NCBI GenBank assembly: GCA_000004985.1
Contig: GG738849.1
Length of the DNA: 64,000 nucleotides
Reading direction: 5' to 3' (one strand)
Source of the DNA: Naegleria gruberi
Taxonomy: Eukaryota
In this document: positions 4,932 through 34,049 of the stretch, piece after piece
Numbering within the stretch: the first letter of the stretch is position 1
Layout of the letters: each line of letters starts with the position of its first letter
Program-made: the position numbers and the translations under genes
The notes under the pieces: model-generated
Seen by the model: only the letters and a program-made list of their open reading frames with translations
Told to the model about the DNA's origin: nothing
The model's database searches: none

Positions 4932-7454
4932 TTAGAAAGTTTGTTGGTGATCTTCTGCAAATATGCCAATTTTTCTCTTTACTCTGTTTAATAGAGCCTC
5001 TTCAATAGAGCTTGTTCCATTGACATAAAGTTCTTCTACCCATAATATTTCATTTACCCAAGGAGAAATAATTTGATTGTCTATAAGATATTCCACAATT
5101 TCCAATATTTCCATCTCTAGTTTTTGATTAATGCTTACTCGGTAAAGAATTTGCAAATGTTGCACCAGTTTTGGAGCTAGTTCAGCCATATTTCTTCTGT
5201 CTATTAAACAAGTGGAAAAGGCGTTAACATATAATTCGTCTAACTTGTCAATATGAGTTGAACCTTGTTTAAAGTTAGTAAAGCATTCTATTGTTTCAAA
5301 CATAGCATTGATTGATTCATTCAAAATTACAAGAGATCTCTCACCACCATTAAGAGCAACATCGTTTCTAATAATCCTATTACATGCCCAAAAAGCTTGC
5401 GACATTTTATCCACGATTATATTAGGAATCCAAAGCATGTCATCTTCAAAATCTTCCATATCAGCAATCTCCTTAATAATTATTGGCAAAATGTAATCAT
5501 AGATAAAATCCTTCTTTCCTCCTTCATTGATAGAATTATTAGTCAACATGTCCATGGAGAGATGAGTGTGTAATATTCCAATTTCACTCAAAGTTCCAAG
5601 CAATGTGAATAGTGAATGATATTGTGTGTATGCAAATGGATCTCCAATCTTAATGAGAATTCGTATTAGATTGGCAAGAAATGAATAGGAGTGTTTGTTG
5701 AAAGCTTCAAGTAGAGCTTTTCTTTCTATCCATCTGCAAATTTCTATCAACACCACCGTAAGTGGCACAATCATTGAATTAAACAGTTCCTGTATGCTGT
5801 AGCTTGACATTTCTTCTGTCTTTTCCTTAATATAGGAAAGAAGTTTCTCACATAGTACATTATCATTAATTAATTGAAATGCGTTTCCGATTAAGAGGAG
5901 GCATTGATTAATATTCTTCTTATGTAGGTTTGTTTTTTCTTCCTCGTTTTCAACTGTTAAATATTCCATCGTTTCATTCACACACACAGTTTCGAATAAA
6001 TTGTTAATCTTGAATTTCAAACCTTCCAAAATTGATTCACTAATTTCTGATTTGCTAATATTCAGACTGTTAGTAATGCCTTTCAACAAGGCACAATAAT
6101 CTGTGATATCATTACTACTCAATTCATGAGATTTAATGATACAATCAAGTAAATCATCAGAATAATAATTAGTTTTTGAAAAGAAAAGACCAAGGGCCTT
6201 CTTGGTGACTAATCTTATATCCCTATTCTCAGAGGAGAGTAATTTCTTACAAATTTGAATAATTGCAGAGACTTGATTCTTAACATTTTGAGTTTCAATC
6301 GAAGATAAATCAATTAGAGAAATACTGTCGAGAGCTGTTATGATAGATCTTTTTGCCAATAAATCTCCACTCTCCAACTCACTCTGTTGTTGCAAAGTGT
6401 CAAATATGAAATCCTTAAAGAGAGCTGCTACGTAAGATTTGTTTTTAAAGGCAGAAGGATCTTGTTTACAATCATAGTTCAATATATTACTAATCATTCG
6501 TAATATTTTGTGTTTGATTACCCAAACAGTCTTTCCATAATTATTTCTAATTCTTGGAAATAAATTTTCAGATATAATGGTAGAATCATCTTTGGTGTTC
6601 TTGATTTGTGCCAAATCATTCTCCATCATATCTAGAATGCATTTTGCAAAATTAATTGACAAGTGAAACAATTTTCCAAGTAATGTGAATAATTTTTTTG
6701 TAACATTTGTCTTCTTCTTTGTAGAACTAGCCTCAGCAAAGTTATAGAGACAAAAAATGAAATATCGTGCCAGTAAAAGACCGAAAGCCTGATTTTTGTA
6801 ATAGTTTTTAGCCTTAAGTTCATAATCATCCTCTGTAGGTGTTGTTATATATTCAATAAATTGATTCCAATAATAAAAGAGATCGGTCAATAACCAACTA
6901 TTTGCTCCTGATAAATAACTTTCAGGATTTTCTTTCAACAATTGATTCTTTCTTTCCAAAAAGTAATTAGAAACCGTTAACAATAGAAAACATGGTGGAA
7001 ATTCAGTAAATCCGACATGTGAAATTGGTTTTCTACACTTTAAAACTTCAGCATGCACCTTTACAATAAAATGTAAAACAACTTTTTGCCAATTCTCCAA
7101 ATTATCAATTCCACATTCGAATGGTTCCACTTCGGCACCTTTCCTCACCTCTTGATAAATATGGTTTGCACAACGAAAGAATTGGGGTATAATTCTCTCC
7201 TCTGCATAATCCATAAATTGACAAAACTCTCTCACTTCACAATTCATCCAATTACACGAAATGGCTGTGGAAAGGTAGTAATAAATTAGAATAATCATTT
7301 TCATGCAAGCTTGTTGCTCAGTATCCGAATCATATACTTCCGAATATACTTTCAACTCATTTTCATCACACAACTTTCCTANNNNNNNNNNNNNNNNNNN
7401 NNNNNNNNNNNNNNNNNNNNNNNNNNNNNNNAAACACGATTTGTTACAAGACAA
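4932..7454 (-). CDS. Large alpha-helical protein of unknown function. At least 840 codons, single ORF. Extreme N-terminus interrupted by an assembly gap.
   Basis: Continuous 2.5-kb minus-strand ORF with coding-like composition. The N run at 7382..7431 lies 7 codons after the nominal start, so the real 5' end is undetermined. No confidently recognisable domain. Confidence 0.55.
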   Translation of the reverse strand: MSCNKSCXXXXXXXXXXXXXXXXXXGKLCDENELKVYSEVYDSDTEQQACMKMIILIYYYLSTAISCNWMNCEVREFCQFMDYAEERIIPQFFRCANHIYQEVRKGAEVEPFECGIDNLENWQKVVLHFIVKVHAEVLKCRKPISHVGFTEFPPCFLLLTVSNYFLERKNQLLKENPESYLSGANSWLLTDLFYYWNQFIEYITTPTEDDYELKAKNYYKNQAFGLLLARYFIFCLYNFAEASSTKKKTNVTKKLFTLLGKLFHLSINFAKCILDMMENDLAQIKNTKDDSTIISENLFPRIRNNYGKTVWVIKHKILRMISNILNYDCKQDPSAFKNKSYVAALFKDFIFDTLQQQSELESGDLLAKRSIITALDSISLIDLSSIETQNVKNQVSAIIQICKKLLSSENRDIRLVTKKALGLFFSKTNYYSDDLLDCIIKSHELSSNDITDYCALLKGITNSLNISKSEISESILEGLKFKINNLFETVCVNETMEYLTVENEEEKTNLHKKNINQCLLLIGNAFQLINDNVLCEKLLSYIKEKTEEMSSYSIQELFNSMIVPLTVVLIEICRWIERKALLEAFNKHSYSFLANLIRILIKIGDPFAYTQYHSLFTLLGTLSEIGILHTHLSMDMLTNNSINEGGKKDFIYDYILPIIIKEIADMEDFEDDMLWIPNIIVDKMSQAFWACNRIIRNDVALNGGERSLVILNESINAMFETIECFTNFKQGSTHIDKLDELYVNAFSTCLIDRRNMAELAPKLVQHLQILYRVSINQKLEMEILEIVEYLIDNQIISPWVNEILWVEELYVNGTSSIEEALLNRVKRKIGIFAEDHQQTF
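7382..7431. other. Assembly gap: 50 consecutive N.
   Basis: Literal n characters in the sequence. Interrupts the 5' end of the 4932..7454 CDS. Indicates a draft assembly, which is relevant to the apparent frameshift at ~56745. Confidence 0.99.
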
Positions 7455-7599: not shown

Positions 7600-10500
7600 T
7601 TATTTGGATAGGAGAGTTTCACAAATGTCTTGGTCAATTTGGTTATATTTCAACAAGACTTCTAAAATGAGAATAATCTTTTTTAGGGAAGGTCTTTGGT
7701 TAGGATTCAGTCTTGTCATTTGTTGGAGGAGACCAATTAAGAGTTGTTCATTTTGATGTGAACAGTAGTAAAAGGATTTTTTTAACTTTTCCATATTTGG
7801 TGTAGTATTTAAGGAAGTTTCATTGGATGCATTGAATGGAGTTGAGGAGGAAGGGTTGATTCTTTCAGAGCTTGGAGGAGAAGCCAAGAGAGAGGAAGCA
7901 GACATTGGAGAACTTGTTTCAGAGCTTGAAATTTTGACGAAACCATCCGAATGGTGATTAATGGAAGAATTGTTGGAAGGATTATGAAGTCTTGGAGAGA
8001 TTAAGTGAGGAATAGCTTCACTCTTCAATAAACTCATGTGAATTTTGGAAGCCATGATTTGATGAGTGAGTTTTTCATCTCTTGAGATTGCTTCCTCAAT
8101 CGAAACATATTCGAAATTTGTTGCATTGGTTTGAATAGTTGCACTTTCTAAATTATTTCCAACAGTAGTATTAGAAGAAGATGCAATACCATCTGTTTGT
8201 CCAGTACCATTCAGCAATTCTTGATGGTCAACTTCCTTCTTAATTATTACAGTTGTAGTTGAGGTTGGAGACGAAACTGTTGAATTATCTGAACTTTCAC
8301 CATGTTGATGCAAATTAGACAACCTAATAAATGATTCCTTTGTAATGAGTTGATAAAAAACACATCCCAATCTGAAAATATCATCCTTCTCATCCAAATA
8401 TCTTTCAATATCACCATCAAAATTTAACTTTTCTTGATTATTGACATTGGATGACATTATTTCACGCAATACCATTTGTTTTCTTAAAGTAGAATGATTA
8501 GTACTTGAAGTGGTTGATGTTGGTGTTGTAGATCTAATAGTAGACCATTCATTTGAGTGTTGCTTGTTGTGATATTGTTCCATCACTTGTCTGTTTTTAA
8601 ATTGGACAGTTCCATCAAGGATTGAAAAATCCCAAGGTTTAAACCAATCAGTGAGTTTCACATTGAGATTTGACTTGTGTTGATCACCCAATAATGTATC
8701 ATTCTCATCAAATGCCTTAATAATTACTGATTTCAATTCTTGTTGCTTTGCTTCTGACAAACTATTCGAAACACTATTATCAAACAATAACAAATCAGCC
8801 TTAAAATCACTACCAGCAGGTGTTACACACGACTGAGTCGATCTAAAACTTGAATCTTTCTCTTCATTATAATTCATCAAAATCTTTTCCAATTTCAATG
8901 AAGGAAAAACAATCGAATTCTGATGCAAATGTGAAAGACCTTTCGTTGACTGCAAACAAACATCAATCAACTCTAAATAATTCATGAATCGATGATTTCT
9001 AATCATAAATTCAACTCTCTTCTCCAAATTGGAACCATTCATATAGGGAAGTTCAATGAAAATTTCAAATCGTTCAGATCTACATCTTCTAATGGTATAA
9101 TCAGAGAATGTCATGACATTTGGATGTTTTGGAAATAGTATCATGGACTCGACACCTTTACCAACTTCTGTTAAATCTGATTTTGTGAAATTTGTCAAAT
9201 GTTTCAAAGCACAGAGTGAGCTTGTCTTGACTTTGACAGATTTGTAAATTTTAGAGTGGTGATTGGAGAAAATTCTCTTCAGAATTAGATATCTATTACC
9301 AAGTACATGAGGTCTAATTCTTCTCTCAAAACCATAACAGTCAATTGGGGAAGTGACATGTTGGAGAAGGAATTTCATTAACATTTCAACTTCATTTCCT
9401 CTCTTGAGATGAATCTTCTTCTCCATCCAATCTACCATTCTAATTACTTGATCTTCAACCAATTCTTCCAAACTTGCATATTCTTTCACTTTCTTTTTCA
9501 CACTTTCGAATAAATTCTTCAAATTTAAAATGAAATTCCATTCATCCTCCAAAGAAACCATAAAAGTTCCATCATATAACTGTTGATTCTGTTCAGAATA
9601 TAATTGTTTAGCAAATGTAGCAATGAAAATTGCAAAAATCAATCTCTCATTAATTTCCCTCTGATAATTTTCATCACTTTTTGTAAACATCATTTGGAGA
9701 ATATTCTTCTTTTTGAGTGGAATGTCAAATAGGAAGGAGAGAATTTGTTGTTCATTGTGTGGAGTTACTTTTTGTTTGAGTTTGAGTTTGACATTTCTAA
9801 AATCAAATCTTTTCAAACAAATTTCAATAACTGGACAAGTGACTTGATAAGATTCAAAATGATCGACTAGGAATTCAACTTGTGCAAGTTCCCTTTCATC
9901 ATTAATTGGTGTATTCAAACAATAACCATGAACATTCAAATTAGTAAAAAGTGCCTTGACAGAATTCATCACAATATTATACGAATCTTGATTTGGTGGA
10001 ATGTAATTTTCAATTATGACTGCTTGCTCACCACTCTTCTCAGATCCACTCCAACTACTCCCCAATTGACCTGTCAAATATTGTGCATTAGTCAATTGTT
10101 GTGGTTTCACTGCACTATACCTCAAATTACCTCCTTGAACAATTTCTCTCAACAAGTCATGAAAAATTTCCTTAACTTTTTGTTGAATTAAACTTTTTGG
10201 TTCATCACTATTCATTTCAATGAATGGAACGTAATAGTAGAGTGATTTTTTTAATCCTTCACGTTTGGAAACTTGTCTTTCTTTACCATTTTGAGAAGTT
10301 ACAAAGATGGAGGAGGATGAGGAATTGGATCGAAGTGAGGTTGAGTGATGTTTGTTGTTGGTTGTGTTTGATAGGATGGTTGTTGAATTATTGTTATTAT
10401 TCCAGTATTTGGTGGCACTGGAAAGTGAAACAATTGAGGCTTTTCTTGAGGAATCGGATAGATCGGCATTGTCTTGCATCAATTGACCACTTGTACTTGT

Positions 10501-11886
10501 TGAACTCTTGAGATTCATTAAACTTGTAGCTGTCAATGGAGATGGTTGATTAGTGATTGGTGTTGTGGTTGAATTCTGTTGTTGTTGTAATAGGAGACTT
10601 GTTGTGGAAGGTGGTGAACCAGCATTACTCTTATTACTATACTCAATTCCAACAAGAACCATTGAAATGGTACCTCCCTCTTTAGCTCTATAAAGCTTTT
10701 CGTATAGAATGTCAACTTGTTGGAAACTTCTACGACTTGCAACATTGTAAACTATGAGAAAACCATCACATTCTTTGAGACATTGATCCATCATGTTGAC
10801 AAATTGCTCATAGATGTCATAAAAGAAGAGTTCTAATTGGTAGGGTTTTCCACCAAAATCGAATTGTTTCTTCATAACGGTTTCGTCAGAGTTGGTTGAC
10901 CTTTTGACTTCTTCTTGCAAGAATTCAGCTGCAATGAGAGAATCTGATAAATCTTCACCTAGAATGGCGATTTTGTAAACTGGATATTGTTCAGCTGTTT
11001 TGGTGACTTCTACAATAGCAGAAGATGGTCGAGGAGATTCTTCTGGTTCAGTTTTGGTTTCTCCCTCATCATTCTTATAGAAACCAAACCATTTCTGGTA
11101 GAAACTCAATTCCTTCTTAATTTCCAACTTGATTGGCTCTTCATGAGTTGTGGCTGTTTCTTCAATTTTCACTTCACTTTCGTTCGTAGGATTACTATTA
11201 GAAACCAGCATTGGAGGTGGTGGAGGCTGTTGAACATTCGAATCTTGATAAACATCTTCCAGTTTAATCAAATCATCATCTCTAGAACTAATTGCATGTC
11301 TTCTAAGATCTTCTCCATCTTGTTCTTGCTCATCTTCACTTTCATCTTCGACATTATTCTTTGATTGAATGTTAATATTGGCAGATGTAGTATTACTTGT
11401 CAATGGTTTACCAAAATCAATAATATCCTCATCATCAATCTTGAATTTAGTCAATTGAACACTGTCTCTACTCGTTTTAGTTTCTAGTGTTGCAGTTGAC
11501 TTGTTACCTTGTTTCTTATTCTTTTTCTTTTGAAAAGTTGTTGCACCACCAGCACCACTAACCACATCAGTTGAACTATTAGCTTTATGAATATATCGAG
11601 AGAGAAAGTTATTCTTCTTTGATTTCAATTCCTTCTCAAATTGAGATGTATCATGAACAGTTGGAGAACTTTCCATTGGAAGAGTTTTACGAGTCAATTG
11701 TTTGCCTGAATTGTTCTGCAGCTGTTGATCATCCTCTTCTTCTTCTTCAGAGGAGTAGGCTGAATTTGAAGATGAAGTCTCTTCCTGTTCATCACCAGAT
11801 TCAATGAGAATGATTTCTTCCTCAGCAAGTATTGAAGACATTTTTTCTTTTGAATATATCTGAATTGGAAAATCTTTCAACAACAT
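7600..11886 (-). CDS. Roco-like giant protein (1428 aa, single exon). Acidic/Ser-rich N-terminus, degenerate Ras/Roc-like GTPase domain, COR-like middle, degenerate protein-kinase domain.
   Basis: GTPase-like block KIAILGEDLSDSLIAAEF…LELFFYDIYEQF…GFLIVYNVASRRSFQQVDILYEKL…MVLVGIEYS aligns to Ras G1-G4 but lacks the P-loop GxxxxGK[ST], the DxxG and the NKxD. Kinase-like block LGNRYLILKRI…LCALKHL…FPSLKLEKILM (HRD-loop Asp replaced)…KLTDWFKPWDF…DDIFRLGCVFYQLITKE. Stop TAA at 7602..7600. Confidence 0.7.
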   Translation of the reverse strand: MLLKDFPIQIYSKEKMSSILAEEEIILIESGDEQEETSSSNSAYSSEEEEEDDQQLQNNSGKQLTRKTLPMESSPTVHDTSQFEKELKSKKNNFLSRYIHKANSSTDVVSGAGGATTFQKKKNKKQGNKSTATLETKTSRDSVQLTKFKIDDEDIIDFGKPLTSNTTSANINIQSKNNVEDESEDEQEQDGEDLRRHAISSRDDDLIKLEDVYQDSNVQQPPPPPMLVSNSNPTNESEVKIEETATTHEEPIKLEIKKELSFYQKWFGFYKNDEGETKTEPEESPRPSSAIVEVTKTAEQYPVYKIAILGEDLSDSLIAAEFLQEEVKRSTNSDETVMKKQFDFGGKPYQLELFFYDIYEQFVNMMDQCLKECDGFLIVYNVASRRSFQQVDILYEKLYRAKEGGTISMVLVGIEYSNKSNAGSPPSTTSLLLQQQQNSTTTPITNQPSPLTATSLMNLKSSTSTSGQLMQDNADLSDSSRKASIVSLSSATKYWNNNNNSTTILSNTTNNKHHSTSLRSNSSSSSIFVTSQNGKERQVSKREGLKKSLYYYVPFIEMNSDEPKSLIQQKVKEIFHDLLREIVQGGNLRYSAVKPQQLTNAQYLTGQLGSSWSGSEKSGEQAVIIENYIPPNQDSYNIVMNSVKALFTNLNVHGYCLNTPINDERELAQVEFLVDHFESYQVTCPVIEICLKRFDFRNVKLKLKQKVTPHNEQQILSFLFDIPLKKKNILQMMFTKSDENYQREINERLIFAIFIATFAKQLYSEQNQQLYDGTFMVSLEDEWNFILNLKNLFESVKKKVKEYASLEELVEDQVIRMVDWMEKKIHLKRGNEVEMLMKFLLQHVTSPIDCYGFERRIRPHVLGNRYLILKRIFSNHHSKIYKSVKVKTSSLCALKHLTNFTKSDLTEVGKGVESMILFPKHPNVMTFSDYTIRRCRSERFEIFIELPYMNGSNLEKRVEFMIRNHRFMNYLELIDVCLQSTKGLSHLHQNSIVFPSLKLEKILMNYNEEKDSSFRSTQSCVTPAGSDFKADLLLFDNSVSNSLSEAKQQELKSVIIKAFDENDTLLGDQHKSNLNVKLTDWFKPWDFSILDGTVQFKNRQVMEQYHNKQHSNEWSTIRSTTPTSTTSSTNHSTLRKQMVLREIMSSNVNNQEKLNFDGDIERYLDEKDDIFRLGCVFYQLITKESFIRLSNLHQHGESSDNSTVSSPTSTTTVIIKKEVDHQELLNGTGQTDGIASSSNTTVGNNLESATIQTNATNFEYVSIEEAISRDEKLTHQIMASKIHMSLLKSEAIPHLISPRLHNPSNNSSINHHSDGFVKISSSETSSPMSASSLLASPPSSERINPSSSTPFNASNETSLNTTPNMEKLKKSFYYCSHQNEQLLIGLLQQMTRLNPNQRPSLKKIILILEVLLKYNQIDQDICETLLSK

Positions 11887-12051: not shown

Positions 12052-14082
12052 TTATTGCTTTTGTTGAGAAACTTCCCTGAATAATTTGAAAATATCACCA
12101 TTAATATAGTCGTTATCAACAACATTGATCAAGTACCATTCGTCAGAAATTGTCTTTAAGAGAGTATGAGCTTGAGATCCTTCTTCATATAAAGACAACC
12201 AGTGAGTATCCAAAATTTGGAAAGCTTCATCCTTCCAAACTAAGAAAGCATTACTATCAACAACAGTTGGTTGAAGAATTTGTTGAGCTGGGAAAACACC
12301 CCAAGTGACAGCATTCACATAATTATCACCTTGAATATTGGTCTTGACTCTTCCATCCTTTGTGAGAGCTTGATAAGTAACCATTGGATACTTTTCCTTG
12401 ATAATATTTTCAAGAGTTTCAAGATGTTGTGGTGAAATGAAACATTCAACGTAGGCCTTTTGATAGATAAATCCATTCAATGGTCCCCAACCAACAGAAT
12501 CATCAGATGATGAAACACCATTAACCTTTGGTTGAGAATTGGTAGTCAAGAAACCATTCTTATTGAGTTCAATCAATTCATTCTTAATAATATTGGTTTC
12601 TGGAGAGGTAGATTGTTCATTCCATGGAAGGAATGGAATCTTTCCTTCAATAAAGTTAACAAAAACTTGTGAAATTGATTCCAAATTAGCATGTTCAGCA
12701 CCCCAAGCAGCAACAATATTTTCCTTTTCACCAAACTTTCTTCTATAGAAATAGGCAATTTCTTCACCCAATTCACCAAATGCAGGTGATCTAGAATCAC
12801 TCCAACGTCCATTAGGGAATTCATCCCAATGTTGAGTACGATCAATGTATGATTTAACACGATTAGACCAAAAGATTGGACGAACTTCTTCAGCCAAACG
12901 TTTAGCATTAGCAGGTTTAACCCAAGGTAATGATCTTGGAATACTTTCCTTTGGTGAGAGTTCCAATCCTTCAAGAATAGCTTCAGTACTCTTTTCCAAA
13001 TTGAGAGTATAGAAATGGAGTCCACGAATACCATTATCCATCAATGCTCTACAAATAGTGATACATAATTTGATACCATAGGCCTTAACTTCATTATCAT
13101 CTTCCAAATTAAGTTTAGCCATTTCATCATGAACATTTTGTGGAATACTTGTTTTACAGAAAGTGGTCATTCTTTGCCAAGATGCATGATTGTTAATTGG
13201 CATAATACCTGGAATAATTGGACATTTAATTCCGATTTCTCTAGCTTCCTTAACAAACTTTAAGAATTGTTGCCAATCGTAGAACAATTGAGTAACAACA
13301 AAATCTGCTCCAGCATCATACTTTTCCTTCAAGTACATTAAATCCTTTTGATAATCTCCCTCTGGGTGACCTTCACTGTATCCAGCACAAGAAATACCAA
13401 AGTAATCACCATGAGTCTTTCTAATGTGTGAAATTAAATCTCTAGCATACTTGAAACCACCATCAGTTTGTTCCCAATCTTCACTTCCAAGAGGTGGATC
13501 TATATTGTTATATAATAATATATATCATGGTATTGTTAATATTGTTATTATTAAATTAGTGTGTTATTAAATTATTAAAAAAGATCATCATAGTATTATT
13601 ATTATTATTAGTGTAGCATTGGTTTGTAATGATAACAATGATGACAATGATGATGAAGAATGGAATTGGTGACACACATTTAGTTATTAACAAGCAACAA
13701 TAATAAATTATCATTAACACACATATAAATAATAATAAAACAAACCTCCTCTCAAAGCCAAAATATTAGAAATACCCATATCCTTTGCAGTTTGAATAGC
13801 CTTGTCCAATTCTTCAACCTTCATATTAGTACAAGTCATGTGAATTTGAGTTTCAACACCAATCATATTTTGAGCAGTTGCTCCGATTTCAATTGTTTTA
13901 CCAGCAGTACTACCACCAGCTCCCCAAGTAATATCAATAAACATTGGAGCAAGTTTGGCCATACGTTGCAAACGTTGATATAAATTTTCAACGCCTGCAT
14001 CAGTTTTAGGTGGGAAATATTCGAATGAATAAAAGGTCTTGTTTTCTTCAATGCACTGATTGATCTTGTCAATAATCTTCAT
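12052..14082 (-). CDS. MTHFR: Methylenetetrahydrofolate reductase, eukaryotic type with C-terminal regulatory domain. Two exons: 14082..13746, 13499..12052.
   Basis: First in-frame ATG at 14082..14080 (the ORF-track start at 14121 is TTG). FSFEYFPPKT…IDITWGAGGS…HMTCTNM…ALRG|DPP joined across a 246-nt AT-rich intron (GTTTGT…ATAG, 13745..13500). The long second exon carries the rest of the catalytic domain and the eukaryote-specific C-terminal domain. Confidence 0.85.
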
Positions 14083-33578: not shown

Positions 33579-33789
33579 TATTTTTAATTATTAATATTTT
33601 TTTAACTTTGATGCAACCGTTAATAATTGTGTTTGAGCAAAGATTTGTGCTTCAACAAATTTATTTTTGTTCAAATTTACAAATATTAATGTGTTTTTTC
33701 AAATATTAAAAAGTCTGGTTTGGTTTCACGAAGCTCCAATAAACAATTTTCCTACAATATAAGATATATATGTTCATTATGAACATGAT

Positions 33790-33861
33790 TCCCGTGTAGT
33801 CCAATGGCTAGGATACCTGGCTTTCACCCAGGAGGTCCGGGTTCAATTCCCGGCATGGGAG
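33790..33861 (+). tRNA. tRNA-Glu (anticodon UUC).
   Basis: Cloverleaf readable by eye. Acceptor TCCCGTG/CATGGGA (one G-U pair). Anticodon stem CCTGG/CCAGG with loop CTTTCAC (anticodon TTC). T-arm GGTCCGGGTTCAATTCCCGGC. Near-identical to the eukaryotic cytosolic tRNA-Glu(UUC) consensus. Confidence 0.9.
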
Positions 33862-34049
33862 AATCATTTTGTCAAATTTGTTTTTCAATATGAAAACCAC
33901 TCGATTTTTCAGCAGTTAAATAAATTCTTAATTTGAGAATATTGTATTTACAGTCTGATGATCTTAAAACCTTTTATGGCTCCATCCAAAAGAGTTCTCA
34001 ATCAGTAAGCTATTCTTTAAAAAAAATATAAAAACCTTTTTCTGTACAG

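Follow-up and report, generated by a model that had tools for sequence, protein, structure and literature searches.

One of the closest described architectures is that of the Roco/LRRK proteins (LRRK2, Dictyostelium GbpC and Roco4, C. tepidum Roco), in which a G domain is followed by a kinase domain and a conserved non-enzymatic domain lies between the two. In the Roco family, the Roc G domain is always contiguous with the COR domain and the two never occur apart, and the kinase-bearing group has leucine-rich repeats (LRRs) before Roc-COR and a MAPKKK-type kinase domain after it (PMC6320773). We analyzed a 64,000-nucleotide stretch of the Naegleria gruberi genome (contig GG738849.1, assembly GCA_000004985.1; the whole stretch is called the window), in which an open reading frame (ORF) on the minus strand at positions 7600-11886 encodes a protein of 1428 amino acids (aa) with the same domain order. 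A sequence-only reading of the window had called it a Roco-like protein whose GTPase-like and kinase-like domains both look catalytically dead. In Roco proteins the GTPase is functional and the kinase mostly active, whereas the window protein is without the catalytic residues in both domains. It also differs from them in its Ras-type G domain, in the absence of COR-A, COR-B and LRRs, and in a kinase domain that is not specifically LRRK/MLK-like.

Pseudoenzymes of both classes offer a second comparison. Class i pseudoGTPases do not bind or hydrolyze nucleotides and have a protein-interaction role (PMC12490416). Like the window protein, p190RhoGAP pG1/pG2, AAGAB psGD and CENP-M keep the G-domain fold without the G1-G5 residues (PMC5593906, PMC12490416), and a nucleotide-free interaction module would be expected in both cases, which for the window protein is predicted from its sequence. 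The window protein differs from them in being clearly derived from the Ras subfamily, in a 117-aa insert at the G4 loop and in its fusion to a pseudokinase. Pseudokinases act as scaffolds, allosteric modulators, switches and competitive inhibitors (PMC8141879). KSR, STRADα, Tribbles and PEAK/SgK269 likewise have a kinase fold without the catalytic residues in a multidomain or disorder-rich protein. In STRADα the catalytic Asp is replaced by Ser, as in the window protein, and in Tribbles the metal-binding Asn is similarly replaced by a basic residue. No orthology to these four is detectable, however, and the window protein is unique among them in its fusion with a pseudo-Ras and an orphan helical domain. 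A further difference from the scaffolding pseudokinases is the great length of its inserts, which lie between the catalytic loop and DFG, within the activation segment and in the C-lobe.

The homologues that we found are hypothetical proteins from N. fowleri, N. lovaniensis and Willaertia magna only. The N. fowleri (P0001, FDP41_003237) and N. lovaniensis (P0002) proteins are each 46-47% identical to the window protein overall, and the W. magna protein (P0003, KAL9645879.1) is 42% identical. Low-complexity words saturated the homologue search with the whole protein, and the Willaertia orthologue was missed there; it was obtained from an exhaustive profile search with the middle block against 1.84 billion representative proteins. 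Both genera, Naegleria and Willaertia, are members of the family Naegleriidae of the Heterolobosea, and by these searches the gene is Naegleriidae-specific. The conservation comparisons below use the four sequences from N. gruberi (the window), N. fowleri, N. lovaniensis and W. magna.

Pfam recognized two domains in the window protein and nothing beyond them, even at E ≤ 10. The first is Ras (PF00071; residues 317-414, 37.4 bits against a cut-off of 21.6) and the second is Pkinase (PF00069; residues 877-1007, 40.3 bits against a cut-off of 31.7, with orthologues up to 2.8e-17). Both were matched in all four orthologues. In a phmmer search against the PDB, the Ras-like block matched M-Ras with an E-value of 1e-9, and the top matches were M-Ras, Rap, Rit and K-Ras/N-Ras. 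The family profile of the block aligned by hhalign with H-Ras residues 1-166 (sequence checked against PDB 121p_A) at 95% probability, in a single alignment that runs across a gap of 117 aa and pairs VKEIFHDLLREI with VEDAFYTLVREI in the C-terminal third of the domain. In the AlphaFold2 (AF2) model of residues 296-1428, the Ras-like β-α order is as expected, with a predicted local distance difference test score (pLDDT) of only ~50-59.

The residues that make a Ras protein a GTPase are missing from this domain (Table 1). The P-loop is one residue shorter than GAGGVGKS, and the position of K16 is taken by D315, a charge reversal, while the position of S17 is S316. In the orthologues, the K16 position is Glu, Glu and Asp. 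The Lys of NKxD (K117) is replaced by E415, a Glu that is invariant in the four species. Switch I is not conserved, with a low-complexity insertion of 30-60 aa in three of the four orthologues and a T35-equivalent that is not alignable, and switch II is replaced by FYDIY or FSPGE among the orthologues. By these alignments, all five G motifs of the domain are destroyed, with the same losses across the four species. The sequence-only reading had reported the loss of the P-loop (ILGEDLSDSLIA), of DxxG (FFYDIYEQF) and of NKxD. These two strings and LVGIEYS are all present and stand at the aligned G1, G3 and G4 positions, and the M-Ras and H-Ras alignments bear out the three losses with a corrected register for the shortened P-loop. 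Because of the acidic substitutions at K16 and K117 and the loss of G4 and G5, we predict that the domain does not bind nucleotide and is a non-switching pseudoGTPase of the class i type.

A dead Ras-like domain could also work as a nucleotide-independent Ras mimic or, in the term of the sequence-only reading, a decoy, constitutively occupying Ras effectors or regulators (RBD/RA domains, guanine nucleotide exchange factors, GTPase-activating proteins) and titrating them or tethering them to the pseudokinase. The resemblance of the domain to M-Ras, Rap, Rit and K-Ras would suit such a role, as would the very large Ras signalling repertoire of Naegleria and the α2-β4-α3 region (QFVNxMDQCLKECDGFLIVYNV), which is very well conserved and Ras-similar. 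However, the effector surface of switch I and β2 is the part that is not conserved and that takes up the insertion, switch II has been replaced, and the window protein sequence contains no CAAX box or other membrane anchor. We regard the mimic as quite improbable.

The kinase-like domain has its best PDB matches at E-values of ~1e-5 (Pto, TNIK, STK16), with MAP4K4, CDK11 and Wee1 also among the best (26 kinase matches at E ≤ 0.01). The kinase landmarks follow one another in the canonical order, from the β3 Lys, a Glu near the αC-Glu position, the catalytic loop and the DFG Asp to the APE Glu, the DxxxxG motif and the subdomain XI Arg. Four low-complexity inserts interrupt them, one between the catalytic loop and DFG, one in the activation segment and two in the C-lobe. 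The β3 Lys (K895), E913, K998 of the catalytic loop and D1080 at the DFG position are invariant, as are E1161 and R1398, the latter pairing with this APE Glu. The HRD Asp is Ser996 in the window protein, and across the four species the position is Ser, Thr, Thr or Asn. The position of the metal-binding Asn is Lys1001, and this Lys is also invariant. The strings on which the sequence-only reading had relied lie at the aligned positions (LCALK at VAIK, FPSLKLEKIL at the HRD loop and LTDWF at DFG), and its account of a domain that has no Gly-rich loop, keeps the Lys and the DFG Asp and has lost the HRD Asp agrees with our alignments to Pto and TNIK. As an observation apart, all four species conserve the last ~30 residues of the insertion that separates the catalytic loop from DFG (ELKSVIIKAFDENDTLLG...SNLNVKLTDWF), which is an unusual place for conservation.

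Intact motifs at an offset position would have undone both accounts, but a regular-expression scan of all four proteins found no GxxxxGK[ST], GxGxxG, HRD or DxKxxN anywhere. By the usual definition, a pseudokinase has lost the VAIK Lys, the HRD Asp or the DFG Asp, or more than one of them. With its HRD Asp replaced, the kinase-like domain is a pseudokinase by this sequence definition, and we predict that it is without canonical phosphotransfer. That K895, E913, K998 and D1080 do not vary among the species points to a pseudoactive site still in use, likeliest as a site for ATP as a structural ligand. The Asn-to-Lys change suggests that this binding is possibly metal-free.

The same residues would be compatible with an atypical but active enzyme, in which the kinase domain binds ATP and catalyzes phosphotransfer or another nucleotide-dependent reaction, for example with Lys1001 in place of the Mg-coordinating Asn and with another base. 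The four residues stay invariant while their neighbours vary, the catalytic loop still has its LKxEK half, and predicted pseudokinases that bind ATP without metal exist, such as ULK4 (PMC8141879). Against this activity, the position of the catalytic base holds Ser, Thr or Asn among the orthologues and no constant residue, the Gly-rich loop has no Gly in the window protein and only its third Gly in the other three, the Asn-to-Lys change removes a metal ligand, and an insertion of 60-110 aa parts the catalytic loop from DFG. We consider an active enzyme unlikely.

The pattern of conservation separates the folded blocks from the inserts. Among the four species, invariant columns make up 46% of the middle block, 31% and 42% of the two Ras-like halves, 33% of the kinase region from the N-lobe to the catalytic loop and 61% of the region from APE to αF, and 0-9% of the linker and inserts. 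We counted synonymous and non-synonymous differences between the window and N. fowleri coding DNA by the Nei-Gojobori method for each block. The synonymous divergence (pS) was 0.60-0.87 and saturated in most blocks, and because the synonymous sites were saturated (pS > 0.75) we report the non-synonymous divergence (pN) of each block in place of dN/dS. The pN was 0.22-0.27 in the Ras-like (0.24), middle and kinase blocks against 0.55-0.69 in the inserts, so that the folded blocks diverge about one third as much as the inserts at non-synonymous sites. The three folded blocks, their substituted 'active sites' included, are kept by purifying selection, and the inserts evolve almost freely. The orthologues have the same losses at the 'dead' residues, and the double loss of catalytic residues proposed in the sequence-only reading thus holds at the level of sequence. 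It is strengthened because the substitutions are common to the four species and lie in blocks under purifying selection.

This selection also disfavours a decaying or artefactual gene, that is, a relic fusion near pseudogenization or a gene model that joins two genes. Such a gene might be suspected from the loss of the catalytic motifs in both domains and from the low-complexity sequence that makes up ~1/3 of the protein. However, 1428 codons run uninterrupted from ATG to stop in AT-rich DNA (33.6% G+C), where a stop is expected about every 14 codons and the probability of a stop-free frame of this length is ~4e-48. The protein alignments are colinear from end to end with the three homologues, and the same fusion is found in N. 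fowleri at the syntenic position and also in N. lovaniensis and W. magna. A relic or an artefact is scarcely credible. The single exon described in the sequence-only reading is real, and it is consistent with the N. fowleri gene, which is also one uninterrupted ORF (4797 nt).

Between the two enzymatic domains, after a variable linker of 45 residues, lies the best-conserved part of the protein. This middle block (residues 641-862) shows 58-66% identity, in addition to its 46% of invariant columns, with a pN of 0.22. It has no Pfam match, and the exhaustive hidden Markov model (HMM) search of the 1.84 billion proteins returned its orthologues only. A profile search of the PDB gave chance-level matches only, to a designed HA stem (E = 0.11) and a gelsolin-like domain (E = 1.4). 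Two AF2 runs, one on the middle block with a 3-sequence alignment (pLDDT 46.6) and one on residues 296-1428 with a 4-sequence alignment (pLDDT 33.2), agreed at low confidence on the same 12-13 helices and zero strands in residues 636-856. A Foldseek search of the PDB with the middle-block model, at this low confidence, found nothing at E ≤ 0.001 (best E = 2.1).

We compared the protein with the Roco family directly, using human LRRK2 1336-2138 (checked against PDB 8txz_A) as the positive control. Pfam detected Roc, COR-A and COR-B in the control at 98, 61 and 75 bits, whereas at E ≤ 10 none of the four orthologues matched any of these three models (PF08477, PF16095, PF25497). In hhalign, the Ras-like block reached 0.3% probability with LRRK2 Roc against its 95% with H-Ras, the middle block reached 0.1% with LRRK2 COR, and the kinase block reached 56% with the LRRK2 kinase, a generic kinase similarity. 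Many LRRK2 chains are in the PDB, yet LRRK2 does not appear in the list of 26 kinase matches at E ≤ 0.01. With the middle block, the PDB profile search returned no LRRK or Roco chain and the exhaustive HMM search no COR-containing protein. COR-B contains β-sheet, and because both low-confidence AF2 runs give only helices for the middle block, the modelled block does not look like COR.

In the same order of a G domain, a conserved domain of ~220 aa and a kinase on one polypeptide, one could still see an extremely divergent true Roco protein, with a degenerate Roc as the Ras-like domain and a degenerate COR as block 641-862. The low confidence of the middle-block models would leave room for a remote COR-like fold. 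The failure of every profile to find Roc or COR where the LRRK2 control scores so high, the preference for H-Ras, the all-α prediction, the lack of LRRs and the listing of the Roco family as missing from Naegleria (Herman et al., 2021; PMC8296547) make a divergent Roco very improbable. On these comparisons, the Roco label of the sequence-only reading is not supported. Among the families that it had proposed for an HMM scan, Pkinase was recovered, while Roc and COR were absent and Ras was found instead. Its domain order stands for the acidic N-terminus and for the Ras-like and kinase-like domains, which Pfam recovers, and fails for the COR-like block. What it had taken for COR is partly the G4-loop insert and the C-terminal third of the G domain (534-595), and the rest is the middle block, which has no similarity to COR in any test.

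Considering these results, we favour with moderate confidence a protein that serves as a non-catalytic signalling scaffold or allosteric module. The scaffold-or-decoy idea of the sequence-only reading is the most reasonable functional guess that we can infer. By sequence, the protein consists of a disordered acidic N-terminus with two conserved short motifs, a G domain of the Ras family, the orphan domain predicted to be all-helical and, last, a kinase domain broken up by low-complexity loops. The three folded blocks may act jointly as a scaffold for protein-protein interaction or allostery, much as KSR, STRAD, Tribbles and PEAK do, and the Ser/Thr-rich loops and the N-terminal motifs may serve as docking, phosphorylation or regulatory sites. 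In the G domain, a presumably disordered loop of 117 aa stands where the guanine-specificity loop belongs. The kinase domain keeps the residues that stabilize the fold and contact ATP (K895, E913, K998, D1080 and the E1161-R1398 pair), and the pseudokinase may bind nucleotide as a structural ligand or a conformational switch. The gene may have originated by fusion of a duplicated Ras gene to a Ser/Thr kinase within the strongly expanded Ras repertoire of Naegleria.

Several points weigh against this scaffold. The function is deduced from sequence alone, which limits the impact of the finding, as do the confinement of the family to Naegleriidae and the poor genetic tools for Naegleria. The loss of canonical motifs is no proof of lost activity, and the four invariant ATP-contacting residues would fit a non-canonical enzyme as well. 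WNK, CASK, SelO and other 'pseudokinases' have proved to be active. The two AF2 runs, at their low confidence, give no structural check of the folds or of the packing between the domains, and the conservation statistics are coarse with n = 4 sequences. A bolder proposal, which we hold to be doubtful, is an independent heterolobosean module of a G domain, a coupling domain and a kinase, built from a Ras paralogue, a helical domain of a new fold and a Ser/Thr kinase and then fossilized as a double pseudoenzyme. The orphan domain would then be analogous to COR in coupling or dimerization, and the pseudoactive site would bind ATP independently of metal, with Lys1001 for Asn, as a switch.

The gene itself has probably been listed before. 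In a re-annotation of the Ras superfamily in N. gruberi and N. fowleri, Herman et al. (2021; BMC Biol 19:142; PMC8296547) list in Table S8 'RasGTPase6', a divergent lineage-specific Ras-superfamily paralogue with a kinase domain (Pkinase) and one-to-one orthologues XP_002681848.1 (N. gruberi) and NfowleriV212_g2018.t2. The orthologous group of the window gene is probably this RasGTPase6, because no other non-Gα entry of the Ras superfamily in Table S8 has a kinase domain, and because Ras and Pkinase are exactly the domains of P0001. Herman et al. mention the domain combination in passing and say nothing on the lost motifs, the middle domain or a Willaertia orthologue. The Ras superfamily of Naegleria numbers more than 350 genes, among them novel fusions to a Ser/Thr kinase domain (PMC8296547 supplement). 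A literature search on Naegleria, Roco, Dictyostelium, pseudokinases and pseudoGTPases found no description of the window protein as a double pseudoenzyme and no account of a protein that joins a pseudoGTPase derived from Ras to a pseudokinase, with the two co-conserved around an orphan domain. Both pseudoenzyme classes, fusions of G domains with kinases and, in a published table, the gene itself are already known. What is new is that both enzymatic domains are predicted to be dead and are co-conserved, that the G domain is of Ras and not of Roc origin, and that an orphan helical domain lies in the protein.

Table 1. Features of the gene for the predicted double pseudoenzyme, in protein order (window positions; residues of the 1428-aa protein)
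Feature	Window positions	Strand	Basis or remark
Whole single-exon ORF, 1428 aa plus stop codon (7600-7602)	7600-11886	-	ORF call; colinearity with three orthologues
Acidic, Ser/Thr-rich, fast-evolving N-terminal region (residues 1-295)	11002-11886	-	Composition; 5% invariant columns
Conserved short motif SVQLTKFKIDDEDIIDFGKPLTS	11395-11463	-	Kept in N. fowleri and W. magna
Conserved short motif ELSFYQKWFG	11083-11112	-	Kept in N. fowleri and W. magna
Ras-like domain, N-terminal two thirds (residues 296-416; β1 to β5)	10639-11001	-	Pfam; M-Ras and H-Ras alignments
Degenerate G1, GED-LSDS (G310 to S316)	10936-10959	-	M-Ras/H-Ras alignments
G3, DTAGQ to FYDIY (F355-Y359)	10810-10824	-	M-Ras/H-Ras alignments
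G4, NKCD to IEYS (I414-S417)	10636-10647	-	M-Ras/H-Ras alignments
117-aa low-complexity insert at the G4 loop, between β5 and α4 (residues 417-533)	10288-10638	-	H-Ras alignment, single gap
Ras-like domain, C-terminal third (residues 534-595; α4, β6, α5)	10102-10287	-	H-Ras alignment; second M-Ras stretch
G5, SAK to NSD (N559-D561)	10204-10212	-	YYVPFIEMNSD aligned with H-Ras YGIPYIETSAK
Orphan middle domain, 222 residues (641-862), predicted all-α	9301-9966	-	Conservation; HMM search; AF2 helices
Kinase-like (pseudokinase) domain with four long low-complexity inserts (residues 863-1428)	7603-9300	-	Pfam; Pto and TNIK alignments
Gly-rich-loop remnant FSNHHS (F873-S878)	9253-9270	-	No Gly in the window protein; third Gly only in the other three species
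CALK, β3 Lys K895 (VAIK)	9202-9213	-	Retained; invariant in four species
E913, near the αC-Glu position	9148-9150	-	Invariant in four species
Catalytic loop FPSLKLEK (F994-K1001)	8884-8907	-	HRD Asp to Ser996; K998 kept
Insertion, 60-110 aa in the family, catalytic loop to DFG-equivalent (residues 994-1079)	8650-8907	-	Four-species alignment
DWF at DFG, D1080	8641-8649	-	Asp invariant in four species
DIE at the APE position, E1161	8404-8412	-	E1161 invariant in four species
DIFRLG, subdomain IX, D1169	8365-8382	-	Invariant in four species
R1398, subdomain XI	7693-7695	-	Invariant; pairs with APE Glu E1161

The N-terminal region has a D+E content of 20%, in agreement with the acidic tail of the sequence-only reading, and a pN of 0.51 against N. 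fowleri. Its two conserved short motifs, with the consensuses S[VI]xLTxFxIxDxDIIxFGKPLTS and SFY[QK][KR]WF, are candidate docking motifs, and the D-F-G-x-P-L core of the first is, as we loosely take it, reminiscent of adaptor-ear-binding motifs. In none of the four orthologues did Pfam at E ≤ 10 match an LRR family to the N-terminal 295 residues. A Pfam YL1 match in two orthologues was rejected as acidic low complexity, and the sole NCBIfam match, AcrIIA3 (E = 0.03, 14 bits against a cut-off of 70), was rejected as spurious. The G4-loop insert is similarly of low complexity, with S+T+N+Q at 61%, 2.6% invariant columns and a pN of 0.69. The true start may be Met16 (codon at 11839-11841, minus strand) rather than Met1, because the sequence from there (MSSILAEEEIILIES), with MSSIL..EEEIILIES, matches the N-terminus of the Willaertia protein (MSSLESSDSEGEVILVD). 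At the first of the conserved N-terminal motifs, the N. lovaniensis protein (RHWVFQEHKAFETVFI...; aligned to window protein residues 140-165) is wholly unlike the other three, probably by a frameshift or a gene-model error in the annotation.

The neighbourhood of the gene supports orthology with N. fowleri, since MTHFR lies directly upstream on the same strand both in the window (12052-13338, minus strand) and in that species. The MTHFR ORF of the window has 428 aa and starts mid-protein, so its N-terminal part would lie in a further upstream exon or ORF (an intron or a frameshift), and the syntenic N. fowleri product has 595 aa. Downstream lies an 840-aa ORF (4932-7454, minus strand) that looks helical-repeat-like and has a run of X, from an assembly gap of Ns, near its N-terminus. 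N. fowleri has a GGACT-domain gene and a V-ATPase subunit a gene at the syntenic position instead, and therefore the synteny may break at this ORF. The sole tRNA gene in the window is a tRNA-Glu(TTC) at 33789-33862 on the plus strand.

If the non-catalytic scaffold is the right reading, the protein would be a natural case of two switch enzymes turned together into a purely structural signalling module. It would bear on how domains are coupled without catalysis in tandems of a G domain and a kinase such as LRRK2, and it would offer the pseudoenzyme field a neat case. Its architecture is also a possible convergent analogue of that of Roco. For Naegleria, including the pathogen N. fowleri, it would be a lineage-specific signalling component that is absent from humans.

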